Virus record (IMG/VR): IMGVR_UViG_2728369355_000004
From: a virus
Taxonomy: Duplodnaviria; Caudoviricetes
Direction: 5' to 3' (one strand)
DNA length: 64,000 nt
Below the pieces are notes generated by a model that had not been told where the DNA came from, did no database searches, and saw only the letters and a program-made list of their open reading frames with translations. Every line of letters begins with the position of its first letter. The first letter of the stretch is position 1. The position numbers were made by a program, and so were the translations under genes. Positions 10,319 through 61,345 of this stretch are shown here, piece by piece.

Positions 10319-10336
10319 TCAGGAAACTTTTCCTGA
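10319..10336. repeat. Dispersed palindrome copy 1
   Basis: TCAGGAAACTTTTCCTGA. Confidence 0.85.
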
Positions 10337-10540
10337 GCTATCATCGTCTGTTTTCTGATCCTTTTCCTCTTGGGCCTGTATCTCTGCTAATGCATTTCCT
10401 ACTGCTATATCTAATCCCTCAAGTATTTCTTTACGTTTATGTGGTTGTGAAGCAATTACAGCAGAAATGACCTCAGTCAAATCCTCAACAGGTCTGGTTA
10501 GATCCAGTTGTATATCCAATGTAGATTTTATTTTTGCCAC
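10319..10540 (-). CDS. Hypothetical phage protein
   Basis: RBS GGGAGGTGA; directly precedes the holin. Confidence 0.65.
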   Translation of the reverse strand: MAKIKSTLDIQLDLTRPVEDLTEVISAVIASQPHKRKEILEGLDIAVGNALAEIQAQEEKDQKTDDDSSGKVS

Positions 10541-10580
10541 GGGTTTCATCACCTCCCTCAGACACAAAAAAAAGACACCT

Positions 10581-11294
10581 TTAGTTTGCAGATGCCTTTG
10601 ATTGCTCCTTATTATAAATTTTCAAAAGCCATTCACGACCTAACTGTGTAAATCTACGGTGATATATCACTTTTCCGTTATCAAGAACTTCTTGTTTGAT
10701 TTCAACATAGCCGCAATCCGCAAATCTGCTATACAACAACCATGTGTCATTCTGCCTGAATTGAATCTTTCGATTGCCTAAATCATGGTTAAGAGCAATT
10801 GCTGACTTAAATCCGAGTTCTTTGGCAATCTCTGTGGCAGTATAGGTTTTGTTAACATGCATTAGGATTGCATTTGTTCTTTCCGCCTGTACTCTGGCAG
10901 CACGTTCTTCCTTGAGCTTAGTCAACAGTTCAATTCCAAAGTCAGGATTATTGAGGATATTGTCAATCACATTATCCGTAGCATATATTCCATGCTTCCT
11001 GATCGACGGCAATATTTCATCAGCTACCTTGGCCTGAAATGCTTCGGCTACTTCGTTTCTTGCCTTCATTGCCAGTCGATAAAAGATGTTTTCAGGAATA
11101 AAAGTATCTTTCGACACTTCTGTCGAAAACTTCAAATCCGATATATACTGCCTCACTCTATCCCATTTGACATACTCTGCACTTTTGGATTTGTCTGTAA
11201 ATCCTAATCCGCGAGCCACATCCTCCAAATTCAATTGCGGCGTGCCGTTTCCATCAATAAATCCTCTTACTCCGTGAATTGTAAGTATATCCAT
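10581..11294 (-). CDS. Phage antirepressor (Bro-like N-terminus plus KilAC/ANT C-terminus)
   Basis: LEDVARGLGF, FIPENIFYRL, EILPSIRKHGIY, YTATEIAKELG..FTQLGR. Confidence 0.85.
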   Translation of the reverse strand: MDILTIHGVRGFIDGNGTPQLNLEDVARGLGFTDKSKSAEYVKWDRVRQYISDLKFSTEVSKDTFIPENIFYRLAMKARNEVAEAFQAKVADEILPSIRKHGIYATDNVIDNILNNPDFGIELLTKLKEERAARVQAERTNAILMHVNKTYTATEIAKELGFKSAIALNHDLGNRKIQFRQNDTWLLYSRFADCGYVEIKQEVLDNGKVIYHRRFTQLGREWLLKIYNKEQSKASAN

Positions 11295-11422
11295 TACGAT
11301 CTCACCTTTCTTTGTACGCAAAATAAGCCCCTGAGTTATCAGAGGCTTTCATACTTGTATCTTAAATTGATTTTGTTACTATAACGCTGCGGATTTTAAA
11401 GAGAAATATTGTTCAGTGAATA

Positions 11423-13025
11423 TAAAGTTGTAGACTGATATTGACGTCATTAAGTTAACGGGCAGAAATGTTCAATCATTTACGTTTTACATGTACCCGG
11501 ATAAATGAACAAGTTGTCAGACAGCAAGAACACAGGCGAAATGTACCCGAGTAGAACGCGGATACATACCTATTAATTTGGAAGTGTTAAAGTTTTTTCT
11601 AACATGCATAAATTATCCAACCATGTCGCATAACAATCTCATACATTATTTTATTACAAAGAAGGGGGTTAATCTTCAATGCATACAAGAAAAGAGATAA
11701 GATCGCTATCACCGGAGGAACTCCTTGCGTTTCGAAGGGCTATGATTGAATTGCAGCGGCGTGATGGAACGAATAGTTACATCGATCTTGCAGGATACCA
11801 TTGGATACCACGAGAATTTTGTCCGCATGGGGAATCTATTTTCCTTCCGTGGCATAGGGTCTATATCCGCTTATTTGAACAAGCACTACAATCAATCGAC
11901 CCTTCTGTTTCTTTGCCTTTTTGGGATTGGACCTCAAGCGAATCGTTAGCTCAAGGCTTGGCTCCTGCACATGGCGATGAAATGTTCGATGACGGCGGAG
12001 TACCCCGACTGAATCCTCTCTTCTCCGGTCCAATAGAGGATCGGAGTCGTCAGACTCGCCGAAATCCTCCGCAAGCTCTCAGACGTTTAAGGGAACACGC
12101 CAGCGCAGCAATTGATGCAATGAGTGATTCAAATGATTTTATGAGTTTTACTGTTGCAATCGAGGGGCCACATGGGGACATACACGGTTGGGTTGGTGGG
12201 CCCGGTGGAGATATGTCAACAATTCTACGTTCTGCATACGACCCAATATTCTGGTCTCACCATGCTAACGTTGATCGACAGTGGGCTATTTGGCAAAAGT
12301 GTAACCCACAGGGAAATCCTCCACCTGAGATAATGTCATTATCATTGGAATCCCGCGGTTTTCCGGGGTGGTCTGTGGCTGATACGCTTGATCTCTCGTC
12401 ACCACGACTTGATTATACGTATGAAGGACTAGATACAGTTACTTGTCCTATACGGACTTTACATGAATTATTTGGTAAACCTCGAATTAAAGTGGAAATT
12501 AAAAATATAGTTATTACCAGGGGTTCCTTTATTGTTGATATCTACCTCCGTAGGAAGAACTCTGCTCTGGAGGAGGGCGTTTTCAGTGGATCGTTTAGCA
12601 TTTTCGGGCTCCCAAGCAACGAAGGGGGACATTTTCCCGGCCATCATCATCACCATACGCCCGTAAACAGGCTTATTGATGTTACGGAAGCTTTTTACGG
12701 CATGGAACTTGGCGAGGATCAATTGCATTATGTTGATATACAACTTCAGGCAGTTAATATGGATGGTGAATCCGTAGATCCTGCTGCTCTCCCGATTGAA
12801 GGGGTAGAACTAACAATCCCCGATAGGTCATGATAAGGGTTTAAATCGTTGGTATTTGAATACTAGCGTGCCTTGAAAAGAGAACTTTGTATTAGTAAGT
12901 GTTATTGCTAAGATTTCTAGTGGGTAATCGACGATATAGTTCAATAGAACCTCGGCAGTCTAGGATTTTATTTTCTCGGCCTTGGCTGCCGTTGTTTCTA
13001 TTATTGAGTGCAGTCTAATACTATT
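11423..13025 (+). mobile_element. MITE-like cassette carrier A (tyrosinase passenger)
   Basis: Left end TAAAGTTGTAGACTGA; site ATTAAGTTAACGGGCAGA at 11449; right ~90-bp segment homologous to 46790-46877 and ending in CAGTCTA. Confidence 0.6.
11679..12833 (+). CDS. Tyrosinase (type-3 copper protein)
   Basis: CuA H..CPH..FLPWHR, PFWDW; CuB HGDIH..DPIFWSHHANVDR; His-rich C-terminal domain. Confidence 0.92.
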   Translation: MHTRKEIRSLSPEELLAFRRAMIELQRRDGTNSYIDLAGYHWIPREFCPHGESIFLPWHRVYIRLFEQALQSIDPSVSLPFWDWTSSESLAQGLAPAHGDEMFDDGGVPRLNPLFSGPIEDRSRQTRRNPPQALRRLREHASAAIDAMSDSNDFMSFTVAIEGPHGDIHGWVGGPGGDMSTILRSAYDPIFWSHHANVDRQWAIWQKCNPQGNPPPEIMSLSLESRGFPGWSVADTLDLSSPRLDYTYEGLDTVTCPIRTLHELFGKPRIKVEIKNIVITRGSFIVDIYLRRKNSALEEGVFSGSFSIFGLPSNEGGHFPGHHHHHTPVNRLIDVTEAFYGMELGEDQLHYVDIQLQAVNMDGESVDPAALPIEGVELTIPDRS

Positions 13026-13066
13026 TCACCTTGAAATTCACGATTTGCTAGAGTGCAACTTGACCG

Positions 13067-13419
13067 ATACGGATTTTCCGTATTGCTAATAATCCACCAT
13101 ACGCAAATTGAGGATGGTTCAATATCTAACCGTCTTGATGTTCAAGATTAACTCGGCTGAAAATTCAGCCCAGTTCAACTCAATTTTGAGGCGATTAAAA
13201 GGACTCCTAAAATTTCAGGAGTCCTGATTTACTGACCCCAAAAATGGGGTGAGTGTGTTTACCTTAATTCGATAAGACCGTCTAGTGTAGTAATAAATTC
13301 CTTGAAGGATACATCATTTAGTTCAGCAAGTTTAACTCAAGATATTGATCAGGTGAAGAATTTAATATAAAGTCCATTATCTCTTCTTCTATTATGTTTG
13401 CCTCCAGAAAAATGGGGCA
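13067..13419. repeat. Array of non-identical short palindromes
   Basis: Eight inverted repeats at 13067, 13096, 13133, 13150, 13179, 13200, 13231 and 13399. Confidence 0.8.
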
Positions 13420-13458
13420 TACACCTCTAACAGAATCTAGGCAACAAGATAAATAATT

Positions 13459-26780: not shown

Positions 26781-26798
26781 TCAGGAAACTTTTCCTGC
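26781..26798. repeat. Dispersed palindrome copy 2
   Basis: TCAGGAAACTTTTCCTGC, just upstream of the TMP RBS. Confidence 0.85.
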
Positions 26799-26848
26799 CC
26801 TGAATACAGAAAAAGAGGCATCCTGCATGATTGCGGATGCCTCTTAAT

Positions 26849-35414: not shown

Positions 35415-35550
35415 GATTTCACCGCCTTTCATTGCAAACTTCTATGAATAAAGGATAACATCCTTTTTATTCGGATTTACTACTGATTTTCGAGAGGATA
35501 GGCATTATGCTTACATATATCTTTTTTTAATGCGGAATATTGGAACAAAA

Positions 35551-35580
35551 AAGTGGTCAGGAAAAGTTTCCTGACCACTT
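35551..35580. repeat. Dispersed palindrome copy 3, also terminator of the SLH gene
   Basis: AAGTGGTCAGGAAAAGTTTCCTGACCACTT, 14-bp arms, T-tract on minus strand. Confidence 0.88.
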
Positions 35581-35623: not shown

Positions 35624-38050
35624 TTATTCTACAATTTCCAGATCCAAGTATTGTCCATCCCAAACATCAAGTTTATACTTTCCGGGCGGCAACTCGCCTG
35701 TAGAAATAATAACTGGTTTATTTACTTCATCATCCGTAACAATTATCTTTTTACCCCAGTTTTCTGCGACCAAATCGTCGTAGTTACCTTGGCCTCCCCA
35801 AACAAATGTATTTAGCAGATACACTTCTGAAACATCTGAAAGAGAGAATGTAATATCGCCTCCTTTTTTAACCTTTAATATATCCCCGATAGGTTGAATC
35901 ATTGTAATTCTGACCGTTCTTCTATTTCCCCAGGTCTGAAATTCTTTATTGAATTCACCATTGGATGTAACCACAGCGTCTGTGACTAAACGGAAATTAT
36001 AAACCAACCGATCCTCCAAATGTTTAGGCAATATAAAGACTTTATTGTCCTCAACTCTTACAGTCCCATTTTCCTTTGTGAAAGGCGTAAAAGGACTGTC
36101 ACCAACAGACCACTGAACGATATCTTCTGTTGTCTTCCCGTCCGCAAGCTGTAATAAGCGATTATAATCAAAAGAGAATTGATCAAGTCTATCCTTTCTT
36201 TCAGGATATTGTACAAATATCGGTGACTGATCCAGAGGCTCGTTCTCATCCAAAACCGTTATTTCCTTGCTATGAAAGTTACTATTTTTGTCATAAACCG
36301 TCAGATCAAACTCATAGTTTTTGGGATAATTCCAATGATTAATATCATATGTCGCGAAACTGACGGTTTTATTAGCCGGAACCTCCATTTTCAAAACCTC
36401 GCCGCTTTCGACACCCAACTCAAGGGATTGGAGATTACGGTAATCTATGAATTCACTTGAAAAGTAAGCAGTGCCATCATAAGAGCTAGTAAAATAAACG
36501 GACTCTCCGACTGTTACTATTTTTTTAGGAACAGAAATGTTAGCGCCCCCATTATGCTCTGGTGCTTGAGGTGTATCATCTTTCTTGTCGTCACTTTTTT
36601 TATGATCATCTTTTTTGGAATTATCGAATTCATTAGAGTTACTAGAAGAACCCCCACCGCCACCTGATGTTGTTGGCCCCTGTAATCCCAAAGTTTTTGA
36701 CGAATCGCCTATTGTGACTTTAACATCACTACTTACCTTGTCGCCATTTGTCAGAGATTTAGGTTTTGTTTGAAAAGAAACATTTTCAGCATTAACTACG
36801 GCTTTATCAACAGAACCTAATCCTATTACTTTGGCAGCAGCATTAAGAACTAACGAGAGAATAGAAGACTCTTTTGCTGTATCTATGGTTGTACCCGTAG
36901 CGTTATCAGCTACGTTTAATGCATCAATCTGTCCATTTGGGATATTTACATTAATAGCGAATGCTTCTACATTCACAGTGTGAAAATAACCTGTAAGGCT
37001 CACATTAGATTTTGCGGGGAGCTCATTTGTTAGAGTAACTCGATCAACACTTGCTCCTTGTGAGACATCGAGGGCTGCGCCCGTCTTGATTTTTACTTCG
37101 CTAATGGACGTTGCTCCTTCTGCCACCAAACGAACAGTTCCATCCACTTTGTTTACAATGATGCTAACCAGCATAGAATTGTTCAGATGAACGCTATGCT
37201 CTCCACCGCCGTAAACGTAGGTTTGACCGTGAATTTTAACATTTTTCAAGAATACGTCGCCGTTCCCGACGGCTTTCCCGATAATTAAATCACCCGCGAT
37301 TTCCGTATTTTGAAGCGTTACACCCGTTGTGTTGATGATAACATTGCCTGCCTGCTTGTCGAGTCCAGTCGAAGGCCCATATGTTCCTGATTCTCCATAC
37401 CAAGCACCAAAATGATTAACAGCACGATCAAGAATCGTAACCGCCTCAGCACGAGTCAACGATTTTTGTGGCTGAAATGTACCATTCTGGTAACCCTCAA
37501 TAATACCGGCTGCAACTACAGCATTAACGGCCTTTTGGGACCAATTGTGCAGTGATGTGCTATCTTTAAAGGTTTTATTGGTATCAGAAGAAGAGATCTG
37601 AAGTAATTGGTTTACAGTAACAGCCGCTTCTTCTCTACTCAATACTTGCGTAGGACGAAAGCTACCATCTTCAAATCCTTTCATATATCCAGCATAAACT
37701 GCATCAGTAACGGTTGAAGCAAACCAATCATCTTTATTCACATCGGTAAAAGATGCTGCTTGTCCTGGCTGAATTTGAAATGCACGATTTAGTAAAGCAG
37801 CCCATTCACTTCTCGTAATCGGACGATTCGGTTCAAAACGAGCGTTTTCTACACCTGAAACCACACCTCGGTGGCTCCATTTTGTAACGTTATCCGTTGC
37901 CCAATGGTTCACCATATCCCCATAAGGTTGAGATACAGTAGAACTTTCTTCCTTTGTTACTTGGTGTGAACTATCGGCTGCGAATATGGGGCTAGCCCAT
38001 ACAGAGGTCGCTAAAATTCCAGCCGTGAAAACATTAACCCACTTCTTCAT
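35624..38050 (-). CDS. S-layer homology (SLH) domain surface protein
   Basis: Signal peptide; three SLH repeats (F.PN.PITR.E, GF.DGSFRP, GY.NGTFQP..TRAEA). Confidence 0.9.
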   Translation of the reverse strand: MKKWVNVFTAGILATSVWASPIFAADSSHQVTKEESSTVSQPYGDMVNHWATDNVTKWSHRGVVSGVENARFEPNRPITRSEWAALLNRAFQIQPGQAASFTDVNKDDWFASTVTDAVYAGYMKGFEDGSFRPTQVLSREEAAVTVNQLLQISSSDTNKTFKDSTSLHNWSQKAVNAVVAAGIIEGYQNGTFQPQKSLTRAEAVTILDRAVNHFGAWYGESGTYGPSTGLDKQAGNVIINTTGVTLQNTEIAGDLIIGKAVGNGDVFLKNVKIHGQTYVYGGGEHSVHLNNSMLVSIIVNKVDGTVRLVAEGATSISEVKIKTGAALDVSQGASVDRVTLTNELPAKSNVSLTGYFHTVNVEAFAINVNIPNGQIDALNVADNATGTTIDTAKESSILSLVLNAAAKVIGLGSVDKAVVNAENVSFQTKPKSLTNGDKVSSDVKVTIGDSSKTLGLQGPTTSGGGGGSSSNSNEFDNSKKDDHKKSDDKKDDTPQAPEHNGGANISVPKKIVTVGESVYFTSSYDGTAYFSSEFIDYRNLQSLELGVESGEVLKMEVPANKTVSFATYDINHWNYPKNYEFDLTVYDKNSNFHSKEITVLDENEPLDQSPIFVQYPERKDRLDQFSFDYNRLLQLADGKTTEDIVQWSVGDSPFTPFTKENGTVRVEDNKVFILPKHLEDRLVYNFRLVTDAVVTSNGEFNKEFQTWGNRRTVRITMIQPIGDILKVKKGGDITFSLSDVSEVYLLNTFVWGGQGNYDDLVAENWGKKIIVTDDEVNKPVIISTGELPPGKYKLDVWDGQYLDLEIVE

Positions 38051-41363: not shown

Positions 41364-42824
41364 TTATCTTTTTACTGCCACACTACCTATTGAAGGAAGC
41401 ATAATATGTGTATCTGGTTCCATTAAATATTCTCCGAATGTCAAAACAAAAGCGTCAGCTCTGTCTGGAGACTTAAGCCCACGCCTTTTCATATCTTTCT
41501 TACTTTCAAGCAGTATTTTCCCTTTACTGGTCATGTTCCATTTACGTGCTGTAAGTTGGGTTATAAGAACATCATCATCAGGCAATTGCAGAACGCTCAC
41601 ATCTCCATTTATAAAATTGCTCATATTCTGTTCTAATTGTTCCTTTATGGATGCCCACATTTCAGTAACCAGGTTCCCATAGTGCTCATCTAAAGAAGAA
41701 GAGCCATTGTTAATTGGAATGATCTCATATGGTAGCCCTTCTTCAGCTACGATTTCATTTAGTCGATCCGTTACTCCTCCACCTACACCGCTATCATCTA
41801 CTCTTATTCTGATTCGATTTAAATATGGATGAGCTTTATGTAGCTCTTTAGCCAGGCTGATTACCCAACCAGCAGTAACCATTGTGTCTTTCTTGAAATG
41901 ATGGTGTTCTCCTACAACTCTTGGCCCTATACCAGCAAACATTGAGGTTTCATCATCACCAAATCGTGCAACGTCAACGCCTATGGTTAGCGTATCTCCG
42001 CTGGGGTCCAGCTTCACTTCTTTAGCTGCAAATTCAGCCACTTCCAACGAAATAAATGTATCCGATTCTCCACGGGGGAATTCACCTTCAACCCGGACTC
42101 TCCATACATCACTGCCTTCACCATACTTACGCTTGAGCATAGCGATATTATCCTTGCTTGTTCTTGGACTGTCCAAGCATGAAACCTTGCGTGTCTTATA
42201 ATCCGCTCTGTCCTTATTGTGCGAATCATAAAAAACACCCGACGTTTTTGTCGGGTTGCCGCACATCAATATTTTATTGAACTCACCCGACAGAGTACCT
42301 AAAATGGCTTCCATGATTGGATCAGCAACACCCGATGCCTCATCCACAATAAATAGCATGTAGTCCTCGTGAAAGCCTTGCATATTCTCAGGCTTGGTAG
42401 CTGTACGAGCTGTAGCGAACCAGCGTTCCTCGTAGTTCTTCATGTAGATTTTGGTTTTAGTCCATTTAAGGATTCTTTTCAGCACTGGGCTTTTGGACTG
42501 CCATTTATTTATCTCAGCCCATAACACGTCATGTAGCTGCTGTCTTGTAGGAGCTGTACAAATCACTTTTGGATAAGGGAAGCAGGACAGAAACCAAAGG
42601 GCTGTTGCAGCTTCCAGCCCAGTTTTTCCTACGCCTTGACCTGAACGTACTGAAACGCGCGGATTATTAGCTAAATCCATTAGAGTGCTTGCCTGCCAAT
42701 CATCAGGATAGAACTTAAGCATCTCTTGGCAGAACAATGTGGGATTCTTGCGATACTCAGGAATCCGTTTCTTGAATGCTTGAAGCCTCCGTTTCGTCTC
42801 CGGTGAATCCTTCTGTTTCATCAC
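41364..42824 (-). CDS. terL: Terminase large subunit
   Basis: SGQGVGKT Walker A, IVDEASG Walker B, GNP, GVDVARFGDD, SPDRADA. Confidence 0.95.
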   Translation of the reverse strand: MMKQKDSPETKRRLQAFKKRIPEYRKNPTLFCQEMLKFYPDDWQASTLMDLANNPRVSVRSGQGVGKTGLEAATALWFLSCFPYPKVICTAPTRQQLHDVLWAEINKWQSKSPVLKRILKWTKTKIYMKNYEERWFATARTATKPENMQGFHEDYMLFIVDEASGVADPIMEAILGTLSGEFNKILMCGNPTKTSGVFYDSHNKDRADYKTRKVSCLDSPRTSKDNIAMLKRKYGEGSDVWRVRVEGEFPRGESDTFISLEVAEFAAKEVKLDPSGDTLTIGVDVARFGDDETSMFAGIGPRVVGEHHHFKKDTMVTAGWVISLAKELHKAHPYLNRIRIRVDDSGVGGGVTDRLNEIVAEEGLPYEIIPINNGSSSLDEHYGNLVTEMWASIKEQLEQNMSNFINGDVSVLQLPDDDVLITQLTARKWNMTSKGKILLESKKDMKRRGLKSPDRADAFVLTFGEYLMEPDTHIMLPSIGSVAVKR

Positions 42825-44046
42825 CTACCACCGCCTCTACCCAATCGTCAATTAGATCATCCTCTGTATTGCCTTCTCCCGTAACCTTGGCCCTTTCGAG
42901 TTCAAGTTTCTCACGCTGAATCTTAAGTTTTTCGTCCTCAAGCATCCGTTTATGTTTGTCTGGGAGCAGATCCATGTATTTAGTCAGTACGTCCAAAGCC
43001 TTAGTTTTATCGTGTAGTTTAACACTTACACCATCCTTGCCCTGCTTCACCTCTGAAACCAGAGTCCCATCAATTTCATCACTATTTTTGAAAGCTACAA
43101 AATTATATCTGTACTTCTTAGTGTCTCCAGTGTCTGGATCAAAGACTGGCTCACCTTCCAGTCCTAGAATATCTTCTTCCTTTTGACCAAACTCTACGTA
43201 ATCAGTAATGTCTGCAAAAGCGATCTTCATATATTCCATCAGCACACGTTGTGCATTCAACCCCACCTCGTGGATCATGGATTCCTTATGCTGTCGAATA
43301 ATGTTTTGAATTTCAACTTTCTTCAACAGAGCGAAACCAATTTGATAGGCGGTTTTCTTACTGTATCCCGCCGCAATCGCTGACCTGGTAGCATTGAAGT
43401 CTCGAAGGTATTCATAAGTGAATATCCTTTGCTTAGGCGTTAATCCGTCCTCATCGGGAATTTCCGGTTCAGGTTCTTCAACAGTCGCTGGAACGCTCTG
43501 TACTTTTTTGGAACGTTCCATATTACCGGAGCGTTCCGGTATTTTTTTCGGAACGTTCCGTATTTCTGGAGCAGCGTCTTTTAGCTCTTTAGAGAGCGCA
43601 TCAACTGTTAGCAGGGTAGCATATACCTCTCTTGGCTTATCACCTTGATATGTACCAACGAATTTACGCCGCTCCATTTCATCAATCAGTCGGGCCGCGC
43701 TGCTATAACCTATCCTCATTCTTCTCTGCAATAAAGAAACCGAGGCTTGTTTGGCCTCGGCTATAATTTGGACAGCTTTTAGAAAAAGCTCATCCGAATA
43801 TGATGTTGGTTCTTCATCTTTATTTGGAGGTTCCTTTTTTTGATTAGTTTCATTTTCATTAGAACGTTCCGTATGTTTTCCTTCCCCAACAATCAAACTC
43901 TCCCACTTATCTTTAGCCTTCCATCCTCTTACCGTACCTTCAGATACACTAAGTTGAGAGGCTATTTCTGTGAGACGTATTTTGCCGGAACTGGCTTTGT
44001 ATAAATCAAATGCTTCGTCCCGTTTCGGATCTCTCTTTCGTCCCAT
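42757..44046 (-). CDS. terS: Terminase small subunit with inserted FtsK-gamma domain
   Basis: N-terminal HTH (TVRGWKAKDKW); ASVSLLQRRMRIGYSSAARLIDEME; LTPKQRIF..NATRSAIAAGYS; KLHDKTKAL. Confidence 0.88.
   Translation of the reverse strand: MGRKRDPKRDEAFDLYKASSGKIRLTEIASQLSVSEGTVRGWKAKDKWESLIVGEGKHTERSNENETNQKKEPPNKDEEPTSYSDELFLKAVQIIAEAKQASVSLLQRRMRIGYSSAARLIDEMERRKFVGTYQGDKPREVYATLLTVDALSKELKDAAPEIRNVPKKIPERSGNMERSKKVQSVPATVEEPEPEIPDEDGLTPKQRIFTYEYLRDFNATRSAIAAGYSKKTAYQIGFALLKKVEIQNIIRQHKESMIHEVGLNAQRVLMEYMKIAFADITDYVEFGQKEEDILGLEGEPVFDPDTGDTKKYRYNFVAFKNSDEIDGTLVSEVKQGKDGVSVKLHDKTKALDVLTKYMDLLPDKHKRMLEDEKLKIQREKLELERAKVTGEGNTEDDLIDDWVEAVVGDETEGFTGDETEASSIQETDS
43490..43870. repeat. GGAACGTTCC-type palindromic repeats in terS (candidate pac region)
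   Basis: Copies at 43490, 43510, 43528, 43550 and 43861. Confidence 0.65.
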
Positions 44047-44084: not shown

Positions 44085-44102
44085 TAAGGAAAAGTTTCCT
44101 GA
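44085..44102. repeat. Dispersed palindrome copy 4
   Basis: TAAGGAAAAGTTTCCTGA, ~40 bp upstream of the terS start. Confidence 0.8.
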
Positions 44103-44289
44103 ACGAAGAAAAAACGCCTTATTAGACGCTGTTGTAGATGAATTTACTATATGTATAATGTATCATCTTCTCGGTTCACGTTTACTACGTATTTAGTGTT
44201 TTTTAATTTATAAAAGTGATAGAATTTACTTGGGAATTATTTCAAAGTAGTGGTGAAAAACCCACAGAGATTCATCTAAATAAAAGGCG

Positions 44290-45915
44290 GTGGCTAAATT
44301 GATAAACACATCTAATTACGTGAAAACCTATACCACTTTAAGTGACTTAACAGGCGGGGAAAAAAATAGTAAGGAAGAAATTATTAAAAAAATTAGTAAA
44401 GTTCCACTTGGCGGCGTATTTATAATACTGTCACAAATGAATTCTTATGGGGGAGAAAACCTTGAAATAAGAAAGATATTTCTCGATTATCTTAAAAGCA
44501 TAGGAAGCAAAGATCTATCTCAAGTTTTAGGTGATAGTTCATTATATTCAGAGCAAGGACTTTTAACATTATGGAAATGGTTTTTCGTTTATGGAAATTA
44601 CAACTCAATCAACGAAAGCGTAGATCCAATTATTGGAGTAAACCAGATCATTCATCTTTGTATTGCTGTTTCTGATTACCTGTGTGATGAGATATCGGAG
44701 GAGAAAGCAAATAATTATTTTTTCTCAAATTCTGTGTTTAACAATAAGTCAAATCTAGGTTCCGATTTAGCGAGGTCTTCTCTAATTTTTGGAGAAATAG
44801 CCCAAAATGAAAATAATTTTGTATCTAAGGACTTTATAGATATTAACAAGATGTTTTCTGATAAATATGGTTACTCAATACAGGATTATCTAGCTATAAT
44901 TTATGGTCTTATTGCTGGTTTTCTAAATAAAGGAACTAGCAATGCCGCTATAAGATCTGATTGGAATAAATCTATTAATTATTTTGATAAAACTCATAAT
45001 CCAGATTTAGGAAAGAAAATAATTGATGAAATTTCTACTTCATTTCTAGACGCAAAAATATGGGCTCAAACATCCATAAACAATCCATGGGATTATACTT
45101 TGTTTCGTCAGAAACCATTACTAAAATTAGAAAACGGAAATTTTTATCCTATAAATCTATCGCTGTTATTTGATAAAGTTTTAAGTGATTTATATTTTAA
45201 AATCAGAGAAACCTCCCCTAAAAACAGTACACAAATAATAAGTTTTTTCGGAAAATGTTTCGAAAAATACGTGGAGATAATAACCAAAGAAACACTTGGG
45301 AGCCGAAAGAACAATATTCCATATGAGTTTATTCCTGAATTTAGTTATGGAAATAAAAGATCTAATAAATCCCCTGATGCACTTATAAGAGTTAAAGACA
45401 CTTTGTTAGCAGTAGAAGCAAAGGTTTATCGTTTAAAGATGGACTCACTTTTTGGAGTTAAACCTGCTATTGAGTCGGATACAAAGAGGTTTGCTATAGA
45501 CCCTATAAATCAAATGCAAAACCGATTAAGCGAATTGAAGACACGATCTCATCAAATTATGAATGGTATTTCCAAAATATATCTAATATCACTTACATTC
45601 GGGTACTATCCTACGCTTAAACCTTTTGAAGAGATGATTGATCAGATGATTGATGCGTCTGATTTACCGATCAAGGGAATTATTCACATGGATATAGAAG
45701 AGTATGAATTCTTTTTAGAGTTAATTTCTAGAAAAGCCTCGTCACCTGCATCTCATTATCTTGAGAACAAAAAACAACTTGCTCCTTATACTTCTTTTAA
45801 AAATTTCTTATTTTCTAGCTCTTTGTATCCTAAAAGACCTCAATACATTAAAGATAAGATACTGGAACACAGTAATAATATGAGGGAGACATTGTTTCAA
45901 ACTGCACTGCGCTAA
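44290..45915 (+). CDS. AT-rich moron with C-terminal PD-(D/E)XK-like nuclease motif
   Basis: FGKCFEKYV..KSPDALI..LAVEAK; opposite strand to the late genes. Confidence 0.7.
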   Translation: MAKLINTSNYVKTYTTLSDLTGGEKNSKEEIIKKISKVPLGGVFIILSQMNSYGGENLEIRKIFLDYLKSIGSKDLSQVLGDSSLYSEQGLLTLWKWFFVYGNYNSINESVDPIIGVNQIIHLCIAVSDYLCDEISEEKANNYFFSNSVFNNKSNLGSDLARSSLIFGEIAQNENNFVSKDFIDINKMFSDKYGYSIQDYLAIIYGLIAGFLNKGTSNAAIRSDWNKSINYFDKTHNPDLGKKIIDEISTSFLDAKIWAQTSINNPWDYTLFRQKPLLKLENGNFYPINLSLLFDKVLSDLYFKIRETSPKNSTQIISFFGKCFEKYVEIITKETLGSRKNNIPYEFIPEFSYGNKRSNKSPDALIRVKDTLLAVEAKVYRLKMDSLFGVKPAIESDTKRFAIDPINQMQNRLSELKTRSHQIMNGISKIYLISLTFGYYPTLKPFEEMIDQMIDASDLPIKGIIHMDIEEYEFFLELISRKASSPASHYLENKKQLAPYTSFKNFLFSSSLYPKRPQYIKDKILEHSNNMRETLFQTALR

Positions 45916-46789: not shown

Positions 46790-48140
46790 TAAAGTGGTAG
46801 ACTGAGCCTAGAAATTGAAAACAGCGACAACCAAGGACGAAAAAAAGTCCTAGACTGTCGCTGTTCCATTGAACTAACGTTTCCCGTTAGCGTAATCAGC
46901 GATAAATAAATAAGCTCAAATTTTTTTAATATACGCGGCGGATATATTTTTGTTCAAATCTTGTTTCTCTACTTATTGTGTAGAAACAGCCCTTTATGCT
47001 TATTGAAAAAATCAAAGTACACTTTTGGGTTTTCTAATTCCCACCATTGCTTTATGTCGACTGGATTAGCTTCTAAATCATATATTTTTGTAAACTCCAT
47101 CGCCAGTAAAAACGGTGAGTGCGTTGCAATGATAAATTGACATCCGCAATAGTGAGCCATTTCCTCTATCATTTTGACAAGTTCAAGCTGCATTTTAGGA
47201 GATAGACTGTTCTCCGGTTCATCCAAACAATATAATGTGTCATTTTTAAATTTGGAATTAAAATAACTCAGGGCTGTCTCCCCATTGCTGTTCAGTTTAA
47301 TTTCGGTGCCGGCGACTCTGCGAATAAACTCCCTGCGTGAAATTGATTTTTTTCTTGAGAGCACCTGTAACCTCAATGCTTCATAATCATCCATGCTATT
47401 CATTTTCACTGTATTGCCGAATTTCAGATTTCCCCATTCCGATCTTATATCTTCTGTGCTATCCACGATTTCATCGTTGTTTGTGCGGACTGTAAGCATA
47501 TAATCAAAAATATCGTCACTTGTGATTATCCTGCTTCCATTTGGAATTCGATGTTTAAATCCCTCGTCGTCAAGTCCAAGTTCAAATTTACAATGTTCAA
47601 CATATGAACTGAACAATTCACTTGAATTGAATGGTGCAATACGATTTAGTTCCAATTTATTCGCTATGAGATTTAGAAGTGTGCTTTTCCCCGAGCCGTT
47701 TCCTCCATATAAAATTGTGATTTTTGAAAAGCTCAATTCGGAAAACCGATTTTTTGAGAAAATGCCACATGGGTAAGTTTCGTCGACATATCCAAACCTA
47801 CCGCCATTGTATGCCATTCTTTGTTCTATCAATGAGGATTCTTCATCTATAGGCAATATGAATTTATCTAAATACATTTTCATTCCTCCGTAATTCATCT
47901 AACCTGCTCTTATGTTTTCTCTTCCGTTTCAATTTGAAGTTTTCAACTAGTAAACCTCCCTCAATAATGTGGGAGCTTCCTCTTTTAAAAGCATTGATTG
48001 CTCAATCCCCTTCCATTCATAGTCGATGTAGGTATTATAGCAGACGAAATCTACTTATCTTATCTTGGTTGTGCTAATCTGCCCGTTAGCTTAATGAAGC
48101 ACCCTCAAGACTATTACTTTATTTTCAGTCTAGAACTTTA
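46790..48140 (-). mobile_element. MITE-like cassette carrier B (ATPase passenger)
   Basis: 16-bp terminal inverted repeats TAAAGTGGTAGACTGA / TCAGTCTAGAACTTTA; internal sites at 46869-46896 and 48069-48095. Confidence 0.65.
46969..47877 (-). CDS. AAA/ABC-type ATPase
   Basis: GGNGSGKST, SNGE, LDEPENSLSP, IIATHSP. Confidence 0.88.
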   Translation of the reverse strand: MYLDKFILPIDEESSLIEQRMAYNGGRFGYVDETYPCGIFSKNRFSELSFSKITILYGGNGSGKSTLLNLIANKLELNRIAPFNSSELFSSYVEHCKFELGLDDEGFKHRIPNGSRIITSDDIFDYMLTVRTNNDEIVDSTEDIRSEWGNLKFGNTVKMNSMDDYEALRLQVLSRKKSISRREFIRRVAGTEIKLNSNGETALSYFNSKFKNDTLYCLDEPENSLSPKMQLELVKMIEEMAHYCGCQFIIATHSPFLLAMEFTKIYDLEANPVDIKQWWELENPKVYFDFFNKHKGLFLHNK

Positions 48141-48182: not shown

Positions 48183-48821
48183 CTAATTTACTTCTGGCAT
48201 CCTCAGTCCGATTTCACCTTCCCGGTTACGCCCTCTCCCGTAGTCTATAACCACAAGATCCAAAGTGCGATTTATTTTCAGACTGTTTGCTATATTGGCA
48301 ATGGCTCTGCGCCGCTTGTCCGCAAAAGTAGTTTCTGAAATACTTGGAATATCACTGCGATAACCGTTTTTCATGTACTGTTGTGCTTTGAGATATTTCA
48401 TGCCATCTAGAAACAACAGTTTGGCTATCAATCCCTCGTGCTTGTCGCGCATATTGTTTACTGCAAATTTAACGTTATTTGTGATGAATTTATAAAATTT
48501 ATAGTTCACGTGACGCTGATCCTTGAGGATAACCGTATTAGCTGTCACATCTGCCGTTAATTCTTGCCCAGTTACCCGTTTAGCAACCGATCCTTCAGCC
48601 GCGAGTATATCATAGGCCGACATTCCATTTTCAATCTGTTGGAGGGAATATTCATAATTTTTTATCACATCGACTAGATCAGCGTATTTGCCCAGCAACC
48701 ATTTCGTTTTTCGAATATCATCTTGTTCAAGATCATCGAAAAAATTTACCTGGATTATCTTCTGAGTATCGGCAGAATCATCTTCTTTGCTACGTATAAT
48801 TACAGACTGTTCGTTATCCAT
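48183..48821 (-). CDS. Putative late transcriptional activator (ArpU/RinA-like)
   Basis: Last early gene; C-terminal ISETTF..RRRAI HTH-like pattern. Confidence 0.6.
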   Translation of the reverse strand: MDNEQSVIIRSKEDDSADTQKIIQVNFFDDLEQDDIRKTKWLLGKYADLVDVIKNYEYSLQQIENGMSAYDILAAEGSVAKRVTGQELTADVTANTVILKDQRHVNYKFYKFITNNVKFAVNNMRDKHEGLIAKLLFLDGMKYLKAQQYMKNGYRSDIPSISETTFADKRRRAIANIANSLKINRTLDLVVIDYGRGRNREGEIGLRMPEVN

Positions 48822-52594: not shown

Positions 52595-52783
52595 CTACGG
52601 CTCCACTACGGATTTTAGAGGTTTGAGCAACCCCACTTCCTCTAAAACGGAATAATGTTTATACCTTTCTTCCGTTGTTACACGCACTTTATTTATCGTA
52701 TGTGATGCGTAGAAAGCTACAGCCTGCTGGACCTCAACAGGCTCATCTTCGAGCTTGTTTAAATCGAGCTTTTTCACAAGCAT
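52595..52783 (-). CDS. Hypothetical phage protein
   Basis: RBS GGGAGG. Confidence 0.6.
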   Translation of the reverse strand: MLVKKLDLNKLEDEPVEVQQAVAFYASHTINKVRVTTEERYKHYSVLEEVGLLKPLKSVVEP

Positions 52784-52962
52784 CCCTCCCTTATGCGCCG
52801 ATTATATTTTTCTTGAAAATCACCCTTTATTTTAGGCGGTAAGGTATCAATTACCTCATTCCATATGTTTAATAATTCGCTGTTAAGCGAAGCGAACTTT
52901 TGTATATTCACGTAACGTTCCACCAATGCTGTAGTGAACTCATCCATTTCTTGTTCTGTCAT
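52774..52962 (-). CDS. Hypothetical phage protein
   Basis: ATG 52962 after GGAGG (MTEQEMDEF). Confidence 0.6.
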   Translation of the reverse strand: MTEQEMDEFTTALVERYVNIQKFASLNSELLNIWNEVIDTLPPKIKGDFQEKYNRRIREGCL

Positions 52963-53028
52963 ACACCATGCCTCCATTACGTTTTTTGGTTCCAGTACAA
53001 TGTTGCTCGTTCGGATACAATGTAGAGC

Positions 53029-53046
53029 GTAGGAAAAGTTTCCTGA
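53029..53046. repeat. Dispersed palindrome copy 5
   Basis: GTAGGAAAAGTTTCCTGA. Confidence 0.8.
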
Positions 53047-53111
53047 GTTGATCATTTGGCTTGTATCAATCTCGCCTGAGAATCTCGCAATGCTGTGGAC
53101 TTGATACGTTA

Positions 53112-53212
53112 TTCTGTATCGTATATCGAATTGTAGTTCTTGACCTAATAATATACGATATCGAATATAGAGTCAATGCATGTTGCTAATAAATATTCGG
53201 TATCGTATAATT
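53112..53212. promoter_or_regulatory. Putative operators of the adjacent HTH regulator
   Basis: Related imperfect palindromes ATCGTATATCGAAT, ATACGATATCGAAT, ATTCGGTATCGTAT between divergent genes. Confidence 0.55.
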
Positions 53213-58168: not shown

Positions 58169-58182
58169 TCCTTAACCCTCTA

Positions 58183-58881: not shown

Positions 58882-58941
58882 ATTATTACGCTCCTATTTT
58901 CAATTTTTAAATTACGTGATATACTGCCGTTGAAATGTTTA

Positions 58942-59340
58942 TTAAATGATCGTGTTGGTAGCACGATTGTTTGTCTGGGCTTCTCTGTCTTTTCTTTTGC
59001 GGTATAACTTACGGCAATAGTAATTACAGAAAAGTCCTTCTTCATTTGGAATGGGGTGTTTCTGACCTTCGAATATCTCTTTACCACAATGATCGCAGCA
59101 ACCTATTCCTTTACCGGATATCTTGTATCCTGATTTCTTAGGAGCCTCTAGCCCTTCATATTCTTCATTTTTAAATTCCTCAAGTTCACTTAATTCAGCA
59201 GTAAGCAAATCTATTTGAGCATGAATTTCGTCAGTCGATAATCCGAATTTGATAGCGTCAATGCTGTCTTCATATAACTCACGTAATTGCGCTGTAAGCA
59301 CTCTAGATCGTTTATGATCGTCCAACTCTCTCAGCTCCAT
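58942..59340 (-). CDS. Hypothetical protein with Zn-finger-like C-terminus
   Basis: CDHCG..FCNYYC. Confidence 0.65.
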   Translation of the reverse strand: MELRELDDHKRSRVLTAQLRELYEDSIDAIKFGLSTDEIHAQIDLLTAELSELEEFKNEEYEGLEAPKKSGYKISGKGIGCCDHCGKEIFEGQKHPIPNEEGLFCNYYCRKLYRKRKDREAQTNNRATNTII

Positions 59341-59690
59341 ATCTCCGCCTCAAGTTCGGATATTTTAGCCTTCAATTGCCTTTCTTGTTCCTTCAAAGGT
59401 TTCATCTTCTGAATACATACGTGATTAGGCCATGGACTATCTGTAATAGCATATTGAGTTTTATAAATGGCCTGAAGCTTTTGTTCAGTAAGTTCTTTTT
59501 CCTTTTGAAGAGAAAGCTTTTCCTTATCCTGCTCTGTTAGCTCTAGCATCTCAATATCTACTGAATGTTGACAATTCAACCAGCGATTCATGAGTAATAC
59601 AGCGGCTATAAGTGAGTCTGCTGGTTGATCTAATGTAAACTTGATGCCTTCATCATCCACGATTGGAATAGAGTAAATCTTGCTGCTCAT
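59331..59690 (-). CDS. Hypothetical phage protein
   Basis: ORF in early operon. Confidence 0.65.
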   Translation of the reverse strand: MSSKIYSIPIVDDEGIKFTLDQPADSLIAAVLLMNRWLNCQHSVDIEMLELTEQDKEKLSLQKEKELTEQKLQAIYKTQYAITDSPWPNHVCIQKMKPLKEQERQLKAKISELEAEIWS

Positions 59691-59782
59691 TTTGACTTGT
59701 CCTTACGCCGGATGTTACGAACGATAATGGCATGCTGTAATTCATTTTCGAACCAGATACGAGCCAGTTCCGGTAGAGTCAT
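59687..59782 (-). CDS. 31-aa hypothetical peptide
   Basis: MTLPELARIWFENELQHAIIVRNIRRKDKSK*; RBS GAGGTGAAGGA; ATGA coupling to next gene. Confidence 0.55.
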   Translation of the reverse strand: MTLPELARIWFENELQHAIIVRNIRRKDKSK

Positions 59783-59795
59783 AATCCTTCACCTC

Positions 59796-60227
59796 TTAGA
59801 TATAGTCTTCTGGACGAAAGTCTTTAACGAAGTAAATGGAATCATCAAAATCAATACGCCGGATGTGACTGTACTTCGCAACTGAGAACAAAACTTTCAA
59901 CTTACTCCAAATCATGCGGCGATATTTTCCGACCGTTTCGTTAAATTTTTCATCTGTCTCCTTGTAACGATCTTTTGTGAGAGTAATGGACCTGATTCTT
60001 ACTGCATCCTGTAACTGATAGCATTCAGCATCTGTAAGCGTCACGCTATCCCGAACCTCTTGAACCATCATCTGAACTTCTTCCACTTTTTCAGTAACAT
60101 CCAAATGCATTTGCTTAATACCGTCCACAAGACCACGAATCGCCATGCCTTGAGCCTCAGTTAGTTGCATTTGCTTTTCAACTACAGACAAGAAATCTGG
60201 CTGTTGATTAGGATTAATTAGCGTCAT
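59796..60227 (-). CDS. ORF6C-like phage regulatory protein
   Basis: IWSKLK.LF.V.KY..IRR.DFD motif; overlaps the ParB-like gene end. Confidence 0.65.
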   Translation of the reverse strand: MTLINPNQQPDFLSVVEKQMQLTEAQGMAIRGLVDGIKQMHLDVTEKVEEVQMMVQEVRDSVTLTDAECYQLQDAVRIRSITLTKDRYKETDEKFNETVGKYRRMIWSKLKVLFSVAKYSHIRRIDFDDSIYFVKDFRPEDYI

Positions 60228-61345
60228 TTTTCTACCACCTTTCTGCTGTTTACAGCTGGACGAATCTGTTCGATAAAGGCTTCCAACATGTCCAAACTTT
60301 CAGACAACCGTTTCTTTTCAGAGCTACTTGCACTGCCTATTGCACCCAACATGAATGAAGTAATTCCAACCTTTTGCAGAAACTGTTTCACATGGATACT
60401 CACTTGGATCGTATTACTGTCCGCTTCAAAGCGAAGCTTCTTCATTTGAGCAGCAGCCTCCTGTTCGTTGAAGTCGTCTGGCTGCTGGAGTTTGATAGTC
60501 TCAAGTTCTTCTTTAGCTCTTTGGTAGCCACTCTTCAATTGTTCAACCTTTAAACGTTCTTTTTCCAAATCATCATTGAGCTTGTTTTTCCAATATTCAT
60601 CGCGTTGCTTGAGCTGCGCCTCTGCCTCTTTTTCTTTTTGACGAATGAAAATGCCTGTTTCTTCCTCATGACGCTCTACAGCCGCAGATACGGCATCCTC
60701 AAGTTGATCCGCAGGAATGGCATCCTTGTACTGTCTTTGCAGCTCAAGCTTGTCAAGTTCTGCTTGCTCCGCTCTCTCTTCGGCTTCACGGACAGCGGCC
60801 TCCAATCGGTTTTTTGTCTCCACGAACGCTTTATGAGTGCTAATCAATCCTTCATCAAGCTGCTGGATAATCTCCGGTGTGGCATTCTCAGCGATGAACT
60901 TCGCCTTATCGTACTGTCTACCAGAGCCGAACCCTGCTTGATCCGCTACAATGTCTCGTACTTGCCCGGTAGGTTGGTCAGGAAAATTTTCCGTACCTCC
61001 AGCCATGCGCTCTTTGGCTTTCAAACGTTCGGCCTCTTCAAGTCGCCGCGCCCATTCTACTCGTTCAGAAAAAGTGAACTCTTTACGATGTTCATTTTCA
61101 GAAATCTCAAGCTGAAGCTGATGTTCAAAGTCTTTGATTTCCATAATTCTTACTGTCACTTCTGAGCGTCCAAGGAACTGATGCGCTCTCAAACGCCGCT
61201 CTCCGGCAATAAGCTGATAATCCGGTGTTACTACAATAGGGTTAATGAGTCCGTTTTGTTCTATATCTCGGGCCAGTTCTTCAATTCCACCAAAATCTTT
61301 GCGGATACGATCACTGACCTTGATTTTGTTAATGTCAACTTGCAA
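60224..61345 (-). CDS. ParB-like protein (ParB N-terminal domain, HTH, coiled coil)
   Basis: GLINPI, LIAGERRLRA, EISENEHRK, HTH VRDIVADQAGFGSGRQYDKA. Confidence 0.88.
   Translation of the reverse strand: MQVDINKIKVSDRIRKDFGGIEELARDIEQNGLINPIVVTPDYQLIAGERRLRAHQFLGRSEVTVRIMEIKDFEHQLQLEISENEHRKEFTFSERVEWARRLEEAERLKAKERMAGGTENFPDQPTGQVRDIVADQAGFGSGRQYDKAKFIAENATPEIIQQLDEGLISTHKAFVETKNRLEAAVREAEERAEQAELDKLELQRQYKDAIPADQLEDAVSAAVERHEEETGIFIRQKEKEAEAQLKQRDEYWKNKLNDDLEKERLKVEQLKSGYQRAKEELETIKLQQPDDFNEQEAAAQMKKLRFEADSNTIQVSIHVKQFLQKVGITSFMLGAIGSASSSEKKRLSESLDMLEAFIEQIRPAVNSRKVVEK
60978..60995. repeat. Dispersed palindrome copy 6 (inside ParB-like gene)
   Basis: TCAGGAAAATTTTCCGTA, encoding TENFPD just before the HTH. 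Confidence 0.75.

Follow-up and report, generated by a model that had tools for sequence, protein, structure and literature searches.

We analyzed a window of 64,000 nucleotides (genome coordinates 239551–303550) from the 5,756,938-bp genome of a Paenibacillus, which contains an integrated temperate phage. The window carries six copies of one palindrome, TCAGGAAANNTTTCCTGA, one of them inside the gene of an orphan ParB-like protein and five at the heads of gene modules. The relevant features were as follows.

10319–10336: site 1, overlapping the stop codon of ORF 10319–10567 and about 10 nt before the ribosome-binding site of the holin-like gene (9841–10344).
26781–26798: site 2, behind a strong hairpin plus T-run (about 26808–26845, minus strand) and 8 nt before the ribosome-binding site of the tape-measure gene.
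35551–35580, minus strand: a 13-pair terminator-like hairpin followed by a T-run, between the SLH-domain gene and the portal gene (33954–35432), whose stem is formed by site 3 (35557–35574).
44085–44102: site 4, directly behind a terminator-like hairpin (44113–44130, minus strand) and 38 nt before the start of the small terminase gene (42757–44046).
48183–48821, minus strand: gene of a 212-aa protein weakly similar to phage transcription regulators (phrog_36, E=4.5e-4), without a Pfam or NCBIfam hit.
53029–53046: site 5, after the replication module and before small ORFs 52774–53055 and 52595–52783, with a sigma-70-like promoter match about 100 nt upstream (53148–53176, minus strand).
59796–60227, minus strand: gene of an ORF6C-domain protein (143 aa; Pfam ORF6C, E=3e-9), overlapping the stop of the ParB-like gene.
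60224–61345, minus strand: gene of the orphan ParB-like protein (373 aa), near the start of the leftward early lytic operon, after the DUF771-like gene 61597–61869 (about 250 nt between them).
60978–60995: site 6, the in-gene copy (core GGAAAATTTTCC), at codons 117–123 of the ParB-like gene and encoding residues GTENFPD.
62319–64000, plus strand: gene of a CI-like HTH repressor (62319–62702) and tyrosine integrase gene (62813 to beyond 64000).

The observation made in the sequence-only reading, that a palindrome recurs along the prophage with one copy inside a ParB-like gene, was confirmed. Allowing up to 2 mismatches, the 18-mer was found exactly 6 times, at the positions listed above (mismatches 0, 1, 0, 1, 2 and 2 in order of position), whereas shuffled sequences gave a mean of 0.02 and none of 100 reached 6. 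The core GGAAANNTTTCC was exact in all six sites (0.12 expected). In the whole genome, the 18-mer with up to 2 mismatches occurred 8 times, 6 of them in this prophage, and the core occurred 18 times, 6 in this prophage and 4 in a second prophage. The motif is phage-specific rather than a host motif. The flanks of the six sites were not alike, so this is a short stand-alone palindrome and not part of a longer repeat. The gaps of 16462, 8776, 8528, 8944 and 7949 bp were also as originally described. However, a regular period of 8–9 kb is not a conserved property: in relatives the gaps ranged from about 1.8 to 18.6 kb and followed gene-module boundaries, and we rejected periodicity as a property of the system. 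No AAA_31 or CbiA match was found within the window, which agrees with the earlier remark that no ParA ATPase is evident there. A search of the window with Rfam and a tRNA scan returned nothing.

The ParB-like protein matched Pfam ParB_N (E=5.8e-11; 42.7 bits against a cut-off of 26.3) and phrog_12047 (E=3.8e-64), and the ParB/Noc/KorB-type N-domain carries intact GxxR and ENxxR motifs. GERRLRA and ENEHRK were invariant in our alignment of homologues and aligned with AGERRYRA and ENLQRE of solved ParB; solved Noc chains were also aligned. In an AlphaFold2 model (mean pLDDT 75.7), the N-domain is followed by a disordered linker (residues 117–126, pLDDT below 50), predicted HTH helices (128–137, 142–154 and 157–164), a long coiled coil (170–287, roughly 115 residues) and a helical C-terminal domain (292–366). 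Foldseek top hits of the model were Noc, ParB and KorB over about 180–236 columns including the predicted HTH, and alignments to Noc-DNA and KorB chains spanned about 230 columns. The protein starts directly with the N-domain and has no ParA-binding N-terminal peptide.

We then examined whether the palindrome and the protein are associated in other genomes. In 401 Paenibacillaceae genomes (designated G followed by a number), all 14 with the ParB-like gene had 3–13 exact AGGAAANNTTTCCT matches, whereas 17 of the 387 without it had 3 or more, and only one of those 17 (G270) had 3 within 60 kb. All 10 related ParB-positive prophages fetched with 40 kb or more of flank showed 5–8 sites with up to 1 mismatch, as did the window's own with 6. 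Sites were located at homologous module starts; for example, a site at the position homologous to site 5 was seen in 12 related prophages (G394, G246, G369, G278, G363, G054, G213, G234, G174, G182, G314 and G270). Dispersed copies (4–8 per prophage) were found only in one Paenibacillaceae phage lineage. Relatives with 56–60% identity over the N-domain and HTH in four other families (G626, G488, G498 and G712) and Staphylococcus phage 85 had no dispersed or enriched palindrome in 44–60 kb (55–60 kb beside the ParB-like genes of the former four), and phage 85 also lacked a linker palindrome, so the protein works without dispersed sites. Similarly, only the in-gene copy was found within 10 kb on either side of 17 non-Paenibacillus relatives. 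An exact-pattern scan of IMG/VR gave at least 119 hits, mostly single chance hits, and was not used.

The in-gene copy is under selection at the DNA level. Codons K118 (AAG 12/12), E119 (GAA 14/14), N120 (AAT 14/14) and P122 (CCT 14/14) showed no synonymous variation among 14 homologues, although they encode a predicted disordered linker; only 4.5% of 292 codon columns are like this, and the mean entropy is 1.14 bits. In distant relatives across Bacillota, the same linker carries long palindromes of different sequence. In 12 of 22 non-Paenibacillus loci the linker-coding stretch held a palindrome with 9–11 symmetric pairs per arm and at most 1 mismatch; seven of these were perfect and two extended to 30 bp. 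Of 138 perfect palindromes with arms of 8 or more in 697 kb, 8 fell in the 120-nt linker window, against about 0.9 expected. In addition, the palindrome changed together with the predicted recognition helix: helices G-K/R-x-Y/F-D/E-K go with GGAAA half-sites, G-E-x-Y-R-K/Q with GCAAA or CCAAA, and S-G-K/R-x-Y-D-R with GGAC or GTGAC half-sites and a G+C-rich centre. Two relatives showed mirror-image double changes that keep the dyad while changing amino acids. Co-variation of this type had been proposed beforehand as a test, and here it was applied to the in-gene site. This correlation is nevertheless confounded by phylogeny, and since all dispersed sites belong to one lineage and share one sequence, co-variation between in-gene and dispersed copies could not be assessed.

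One observation against the association came from G270. Its prophage is syntenic (40–80% amino-acid identity) and keeps 3 exact sites and one with a single mismatch at the same module starts, yet its gene in the ParB position encodes a DUF3102 domain plus only the shared coiled coil and C-terminal domain. It has no ParB_N, no detectable similarity to the HTH part (hhalign aligned only the C-terminal halves, 183–375) and no in-gene palindrome. No hidden ParB HTH was found in this genome by relaxed tblastn or ORF inspection, no other gene of this type was found, and its second ParB-like gene is of another type. The DUF3102-type phages Pd_22F and G141:C12 had no motif. A second prophage of the Paenibacillus genome analyzed here (4509523 to about 4543880, inserted in prkA) has 3 exact and 2 near sites but no such protein. 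We first considered it as evidence against the link to ParB; however, two of its sites carry flanks shared with ParB-type phages and three lie in modules shared with them, so that they may have arrived by recombination, and we gave it less weight.

These observations raise the possibility that the dispersed copies are operators of another protein shared by the lineage, marking late transcription units, with the ParB-like protein using only its in-gene copy or the likeness being secondary. The main candidate is the 212-aa regulator-like protein encoded before the packaging genes, although an unrecognized small protein is also conceivable. The 212-aa protein was present in every motif-bearing prophage with enough sequence fetched, including G270, and absent from the motif-free ParB-like prophages. 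In a remnant in G349 one site travels with the regulator gene, and in the second prophage one site precedes a weak ArpU-like relative of that regulator (E=0.006). The position of sites at the start of transcription units, behind terminators, is also consistent with this view. On the other hand, it requires a coincidence, namely a second protein recognizing exactly the palindrome that the ParB-like family maintains in its own linker codons. There is no room for a promoter between most sites and the next ribosome-binding site (8–25 nt), sigma-70-type matches were absent at 4 of 5 sites, the 212-aa protein belongs to no recognized DNA-binding family, and G345 has a 50%-identical regulator homologue but no motif within the 5 kb of contig available downstream. 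As ParB-free members of the lineage, neither G349 (only 5.5 kb) nor G345 was informative. We consider this explanation unlikely, though it is the leading alternative.

A second alternative is that the element acts in RNA, as a stem-loop at the 5' end of each module's message or part of a terminator that would stabilize, process or terminate transcripts. Sites lie between a terminator and the next ribosome-binding site, and site 3 is itself a terminator-like stem. However, predicted stems ranged from 4 to 13 pairs with z-scores from −0.2 to −6, and sites 1, 5 and 6 folded no better than shuffles. It is the sequence that is conserved within the lineage, rather than a co-varying hairpin, and the central dinucleotide occurs in both orientations relative to the genes. 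One RNA-library contig of a related strain ended, with adapter attached, at the upstream edge of site 5 (53046), and the early region was apparently covered, but the former was one contig in one run, and all contigs came from related strains sharing 0.18 or less of the sampled words; depth in such data cannot rank genes and contig ends do not show RNA ends, and neither observation was used as evidence. An RNA element would also not explain linker palindromes that track the HTH across the protein family, and this explanation appears improbable. Finally, the palindromes could be module-boundary linkers mainly serving as short homologies for recombination between related phages, with mosaicism as their function. 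Sites do lie at module borders, the second prophage shares modules and the G349 remnant shares genes with ParB-type phages, and in the second prophage one junction lies next to a site, where 22 identical bases run from site 4 into its flank. But 14–22 bp is very short for homologous exchange, and neither the dyad symmetry, the in-gene copy nor the family-wide linker palindromes would be explained. Recombination is more likely a side effect than a function, and we regard this possibility as very unlikely.

We therefore favor, with moderate confidence, the interpretation that the palindrome (extended consensus about G-N-T-C/A-AGGAAA-NN-TTTCCT-G/T-A-N-C, 18–22 bp) is the cognate DNA site of the prophage's own orphan ParB-like protein. 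In this view, the single in-gene site would be the ancestral state, common to the whole protein family, whereas in one lineage of Paenibacillaceae temperate phages the site would have been copied to the head of each functional module: a small gene after the replication module, the small terminase, the portal, the tape measure, sometimes a tail-fibre gene, and the holin, usually a few bases behind an intrinsic terminator. After induction, dimers would bind the sites through the predicted HTH, nucleotide binding would close the N-terminal gate, and clamps would leave the site into the flanking module. With one loading site per transcription unit they would set or coordinate transcription across module borders, as KorB does by repression and BisD by activation, possibly with the adjacent ORF6C protein as partner; a homologue of the latter lies next to the ParB-like or DUF3102-type gene in related prophages, and the neighbour in Pd_22F is annotated as ORF6C-domain. 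It is not a partition system, because there is no ParA and the phage integrates. Our analysis establishes the sites, their phage specificity and positional conservation, the motifs and modelled fold of the protein, selection on the in-gene site and, with the reservation noted above, co-variation of linker palindrome and helix. Binding, in particular to the dispersed copies, CTP use and hydrolysis, clamp closure and sliding, the direction of any regulatory effect and the identity of the partner are inferred.

The interpretation offered in the sequence-only reading, a ParA-less loading system that tiles the phage genome with clamps, was thus supported only in part. The type of protein, the absence of ParA and the phage specificity of the motif held, whereas a fixed period, or tiling as such, was not supported, and no evidence was found for shielding from nucleases. 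A broader hypothesis, which remains tentative, is that a tailed temperate phage has turned an orphan nucleotide-switch clamp into a genome-wide controller, with one loading site in its own gene and one at the head of every late module, right behind that module's upstream terminator. Clamps loaded module by module would time, insulate or restart transcription over about 50 kb, or condense or mark the phage DNA, and the whole family, spread over Bacillota phages, would hide its cognate site in the codons of its own disordered linker. ParB-fold CTP switches acting as long-range gene regulators are so far known from a plasmid (KorB), a virulence plasmid (VirB) and an ICE (BisD), and our literature searches found no paper describing a phage system of this type. 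Our results give a widespread phage family a predicted cognate site, a simple rule for finding it (the linker codons of its own gene) and natural specificity variants with which to test how the helix reads DNA, as well as a lineage in which the site has multiplied to one per module, making long-range control or organization of a phage genome by a sliding clamp directly testable.

Several known systems may be compared with this one. A survey published in PNAS in 2025 reported that divergent ParB-like proteins lacking the ParA-binding motif are common on plasmids and prophages, with unknown roles, and that this fold can bind ATP or GTP instead of CTP (PMC12704722); we found no cognate, in-gene or dispersed sites named there for phage proteins of this type, its supplements, which may list members of this family, excepted. 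Chromosomal ParB (Spo0J) and Noc of Bacillota share the N-domain motifs and the predicted HTH fold (best sequence and fold matches 1vz0, 7ol9, 7nfu and 6sdk) and use palindromic sites of the 16-bp class, as is inferred for the protein described here. A parS site lies inside spo0J, and Noc has many dispersed sites. However, the site sequence differs from parS and from the Noc site, the ParA-binding peptide and ParA are missing here, and NCBIfam scores were far below the family cut-offs (noc, 51 bits against 315; parB_part, 45 against 58). KorB of IncP plasmid RK2 is a ParB-family CTP clamp with an HTH that binds a palindromic operator at many places on a mobile replicon and acts on transcription at a distance by sliding, with a small partner protein, KorA, locking it (PMC11790492). 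RK2 carries 12 KorB operators. KorB chains 8qa9 and 8qa8 were among our fold matches, and the many copies spread over the prophage and its 10 relatives resemble this arrangement. Unlike the protein described here, KorB is also the partition protein of a ParA (IncC) system; in addition, the predicted long coiled coil plus helical domain is not seen in KorB, and our sites lie behind terminators at module heads rather than beside promoters. BisD of ICEclc from Pseudomonas, which acts with BisC, is an orphan ParB-like CTPase on an integrated mobile element, has an extra all-helical C-terminal domain joined by a long linker, loads at long palindromes inside genes, spreads over about 50 kb and acts on about 11 promoters (PMC12409273). 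In the protein described here, the predicted C-terminal half is shared with DUF3102-type proteins. BisD has two sites 2 kb apart, whereas here 5–8 sites are spread over 40–55 kb, one of them in the protein's own gene, and the host is a tailed phage of Bacillota.

The 18-mer TCAGGAAANNTTTCCTGA with up to 2 mismatches was found exactly six times in the window, at 10319, 26781, 35557, 44085, 53029 and 60978 (sites 1 to 6 in this order), whereas shuffled sequences gave a mean of 0.02 and none of 100 shuffles reached six. The 12-base core GGAAANNTTTCC was exact in all six copies. The flanks of the six copies were unrelated, so this is a short stand-alone dyad and not a piece of a longer repeat. In the whole 5.76-Mb genome, the 18-mer with up to 2 mismatches occurred 8 times, 6 of them in the prophage, and the core occurred 18 times, including 6 in the prophage, 4 in a second prophage and 8 elsewhere. 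The observation made in the sequence-only reading was real and highly non-random.

Genes of the element run on the minus strand, from a CI-like repressor gene and a tyrosine integrase gene at 62.3-64 kb to the lysis genes at 8.7-10.3 kb. Their order is as follows.

DUF771-like gene
ParB-like gene, 60224-61345, with site 6 inside it
ORF6C-domain gene
Replication genes: a replication protein O homologue, a DnaC-like helicase loader, a phage DnaN (54482-55624, minus strand) and a DUF1064 protein
Site 5
Small ORFs, an HNH endonuclease, a DNA methyltransferase and a 212-aa regulator-like protein
Accessory genes, followed by site 4 and the small and large terminase genes
Accessory genes, including an 808-aa SLH-domain protein (35624-38050, minus strand)
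Site 3, then the portal and capsid genes
Site 2, then the tape measure and tail genes
Anti-repressor-like genes and plus-strand accessory genes
Site 1, then holin, endolysin and holin

No ParA-type ATPase family matched inside the window's genome coordinates. The earlier description of where the copies lie, with one copy in the ParB-like gene, five at gene boundaries and no evident ParA, is therefore correct. The DnaN gene encodes the phage's own DNA polymerase III beta sliding clamp with all three DnaN domains, and it is conserved across the lineage at 29-96% identity. The 808-aa protein has three S-layer-homology domains; it is an unusual accessory gene inside a head module, between the terminase and portal genes, and is not conserved in the related prophages. 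A tyrosinase-domain gene (11679-12833, plus strand) lies on the opposite strand between two anti-repressor-like genes and is a likely lysogenic-conversion gene. A low-G+C (0.32) ORF of 541 aa with no family match (44290-45915, plus strand) also lies on the opposite strand, near an AAA_21/AAA_15 ATPase gene (46969-47898, minus strand) of a family often seen in abortive-infection or defence systems, and both are located between the late regulator gene and the small terminase gene. Besides, two copies of ATTAATC-N5-GATTAAT, at 62112 and 62183, lie between the divergent repressor gene and the early genes and are probably CI/Cro operators. An analogous pair, TCTAATTTAATTAGA, was present in genome G270, which is discussed below, at positions 183685 and 183924 of its contig C24.

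In the ParB-like protein, Pfam ParB_N covered residues 15-81, and the protein matched phrog_12047 (“ParB-like partition nuclease”). The motifs GERRLRA and ENEHRK aligned with the nucleotide-binding boxes of solved ParB proteins and were invariant in relatives. An AlphaFold2 model based on a 16-sequence alignment (mean pLDDT 75.7, pTM 0.35) predicted five parts: an alpha/beta N-domain, a disordered linker at 117-126, three short helices at 128-164, one very long helical stretch at 170-287, and a helical C-terminal domain at 292-366. A Foldseek search of this model against the PDB returned Noc, ParB, pNOB8 ParB and KorB over about 180-236 columns. However, NCBIfam scores for noc and parB_part were far below their cut-offs, and the protein is a divergent orphan rather than a chromosomal ParB or Noc.

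To examine whether the motif is tied to this protein, we analyzed 401 Paenibacillaceae genomes (one per species, the window's own included). Fourteen of them encoded a homologue with 69-100% identity, and all 14 had 3-13 exact AGGAAANNTTTCCT matches. In contrast, 17 of the other 387 genomes had 3 or more, and inspection of the positions in all 17 showed that only G270 had three within 60 kb. In two genomes without the ParB-like gene, pairs of exact AGGAAANNTTTCCT matches were located 1.6-3 kb apart (G311, contig C32, 545795 and 548781; G366, contig C1, 5721742 and 5723388). We also retrieved 40 kb or more beside the homologue in 10 related genomes. All 10, like the window's own prophage, showed 5-8 sites with up to 1 mismatch, with an extended consensus of about G-N-T-C/A-AGGAAA-NN-TTTCCT-G/T-A-N-C. 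The sites recurred at homologous places: in the gene, before a small gene after the replication module, before the small terminase, before the portal, before the tape measure, sometimes before a tail-fibre gene, and before the holin. In genome G369, the related prophage was present twice in tandem (contig C21, 83379-203118), and all its sites and the ParB-like gene repeated at an offset of 59,740 bp. Gaps between sites ranged from about 1.8 to 18.6 kb, and the spacing of 8-9 kb that had been proposed as a period reflects module sizes in the window and is not a rule.

The copy inside the gene is a selected DNA element. In 14 homologues, the codons under the site showed no synonymous variation (AAG 12/12, GAA 14/14, AAT 14/14 and CCT 14/14), although only 4.5% of 292 comparable codon columns were invariant and neighbouring codons varied freely. 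The only 5-codon window that was more constrained is at the 3' end of the gene, where the next gene starts. The residues encoded by the site are the predicted disordered linker, so the protein can tolerate a DNA-level constraint there.

The decisive comparison came from more distant relatives. A scan of one genome per species returned 46 loci with relatives from Paenibacillus, Brevibacillus, Clostridium, Robinsoniella, Ammonifex, Ruminococcus and others, and the linker-coding stretch just before the HTH could be aligned in 22 non-Paenibacillus loci. In 12 of these 22, it held a palindrome with 9-11 symmetric pairs per arm and at most one mismatch; seven were perfect and two extended to 30 perfect bases. 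The palindrome sequences differed by lineage and included GGAAA-type, GCAAA- or CCAAA-type, and GGAC- or GTGAC-type half-sites. Helices of the form G-K/R-x-Y/F-D/E-K went with GGAAA, those of the form G-E-x-Y-R-K/Q with GCAAA or CCAAA, and those of the form S-G-K/R-x-Y-D-R with GGAC or GTGAC and a G+C-rich centre. Two relatives showed mirror-image double substitutions that kept the dyad while changing the amino acids. In addition, the Ammonifex thiophilus relative had a 43-residue insertion in the linker and carried, 427 nt into the match, a second perfect palindrome of 26 bp about 40 nt after the first one. As a control, we counted perfect palindromes with arms of 8 or more in the 697 kb of 39 loci; there were 138, and eight of them fell in the 120-nt linker window, where about 0.9 would be expected. 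Although the correlation between helix and half-site is not corrected for phylogeny, and Staphylococcus phage 85 had no linker palindrome, this is the signature of a cognate site that co-evolves with its DNA-binding domain.

Dispersal of the site was lineage-specific. Around the non-Paenibacillus relatives, only the in-gene copy was found within 10 kb on either side, and no enriched palindrome was found in four relatives for which 55-60 kb was analyzed (G626, G488, G498 and G712) or in phage 85. The protein would therefore normally work with a single site in its own gene, and one Paenibacillaceae phage lineage has multiplied that site.

However, some evidence argued against the link. The prophage in G270 was syntenic with that of the window (40-80% amino acid identity) and kept three exact sites and one one-mismatch site at the same module starts. 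Its gene in the ParB position, however, encoded DUF3102 (residues 14-80) fused to the same coiled coil and C-terminal domain, and hhalign gave 98.8% probability over 183-375 only. This gene had no in-gene palindrome, no hidden HTH of the ParB-like type was found, and no other gene of this type was found in that genome. Besides, other DUF3102-type phages (Pd_22F and the one on contig 12 of genome G141) had no such motif. The sites in G270 are an unexplained exception. In addition, a second prophage of about 34 kb in the window's own genome (4509523-4543880) had three exact and two near sites and no such protein. It is inserted in the sporulation gene prkA by a serine recombinase, with a large serine recombinase gene at one end and the two prkA halves at 4508541-4509521 and 4543888-4544943, and resembles the sporulation-excised elements of Bacillus. 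It shares tail-tip and lysis modules and an 84-95-aa protein with the window's prophage. One of its sites shared 22 identical bases with site 4 and its flank, and another had a context identical to a site in G394, one of the related genomes. These sites probably arrived with exchanged modules.

We further examined where the sites are located relative to possible transcription signals. Site 4 lies directly behind a terminator-like hairpin, site 2 lies behind a strong hairpin with a T-run, and site 3 is itself the stem of a 13-pair terminator-like hairpin. Many sites in relatives followed the same plan, i.e., hairpin and T-run, then the site, then 8-25 nt, then a ribosome-binding site and start codon. 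Only site 5 had a sigma-70-type match nearby, about 100 nt upstream. An RNA-library contig from a related strain ended at 53046, within 2 nt of the upstream edge of site 5, with sequencing adapter attached, and a neighbouring contig ended at 53144, close to the promoter-like match at 53148-53176. However, this came from one contig in one run, and RNA-library contigs from related strains could not be used as evidence. An alternative explanation is that the element acts as an RNA structure. Predicted RNA stems at the sites ranged from 4 to 13 pairs, three of the six folded no better than shuffles, the central dinucleotide occurred in both orientations, and a search of Rfam found nothing. A symmetric DNA-binding dimer fits these facts better than an RNA structure does.

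We propose that dimers of the ParB-like protein, which is encoded near the start of the early operon, would recognise the palindrome through the HTH, that nucleotide binding at the GERR and ENEHR pocket would close the N-terminal gate, and that the clamp would then move into flanking DNA. With one loading site per transcription unit, placed just behind the upstream terminator of that unit, the clamps could hold back or promote transcription of each module. A partner may take part, as the ORF6C-domain gene stays next to both the ParB-type and the DUF3102-type genes. In this model, binding, nucleotide use, sliding, the sign of the effect and the partner are all inferred, whereas the palindromes themselves, their distribution and the DNA-level selection on the in-gene copy were shown by the sequence analysis. 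The earlier interpretation that the palindrome belongs to the ParB-like protein was partly supported: the link is well supported for the in-gene copy and, with the one exception of G270, probable, though by no means certain, for the dispersed copies, while regular spacing was not a property of the system.

The system is best placed among ParB-fold regulators of mobile elements, as a form with a site in its own gene and, in one lineage, dispersed copies of it; it is not a partition system. Full-text literature searches found no paper describing the sites of this family or the dispersed arrangement. A 2025 survey records many orphan ParB-fold proteins in prophages but, in the parts consulted, which did not include its supplements, gives no sites or function for this type (PMC12704722). 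The closest precedents are KorB with KorA (PMC11790492) and BisD with BisC (PMC12409273).
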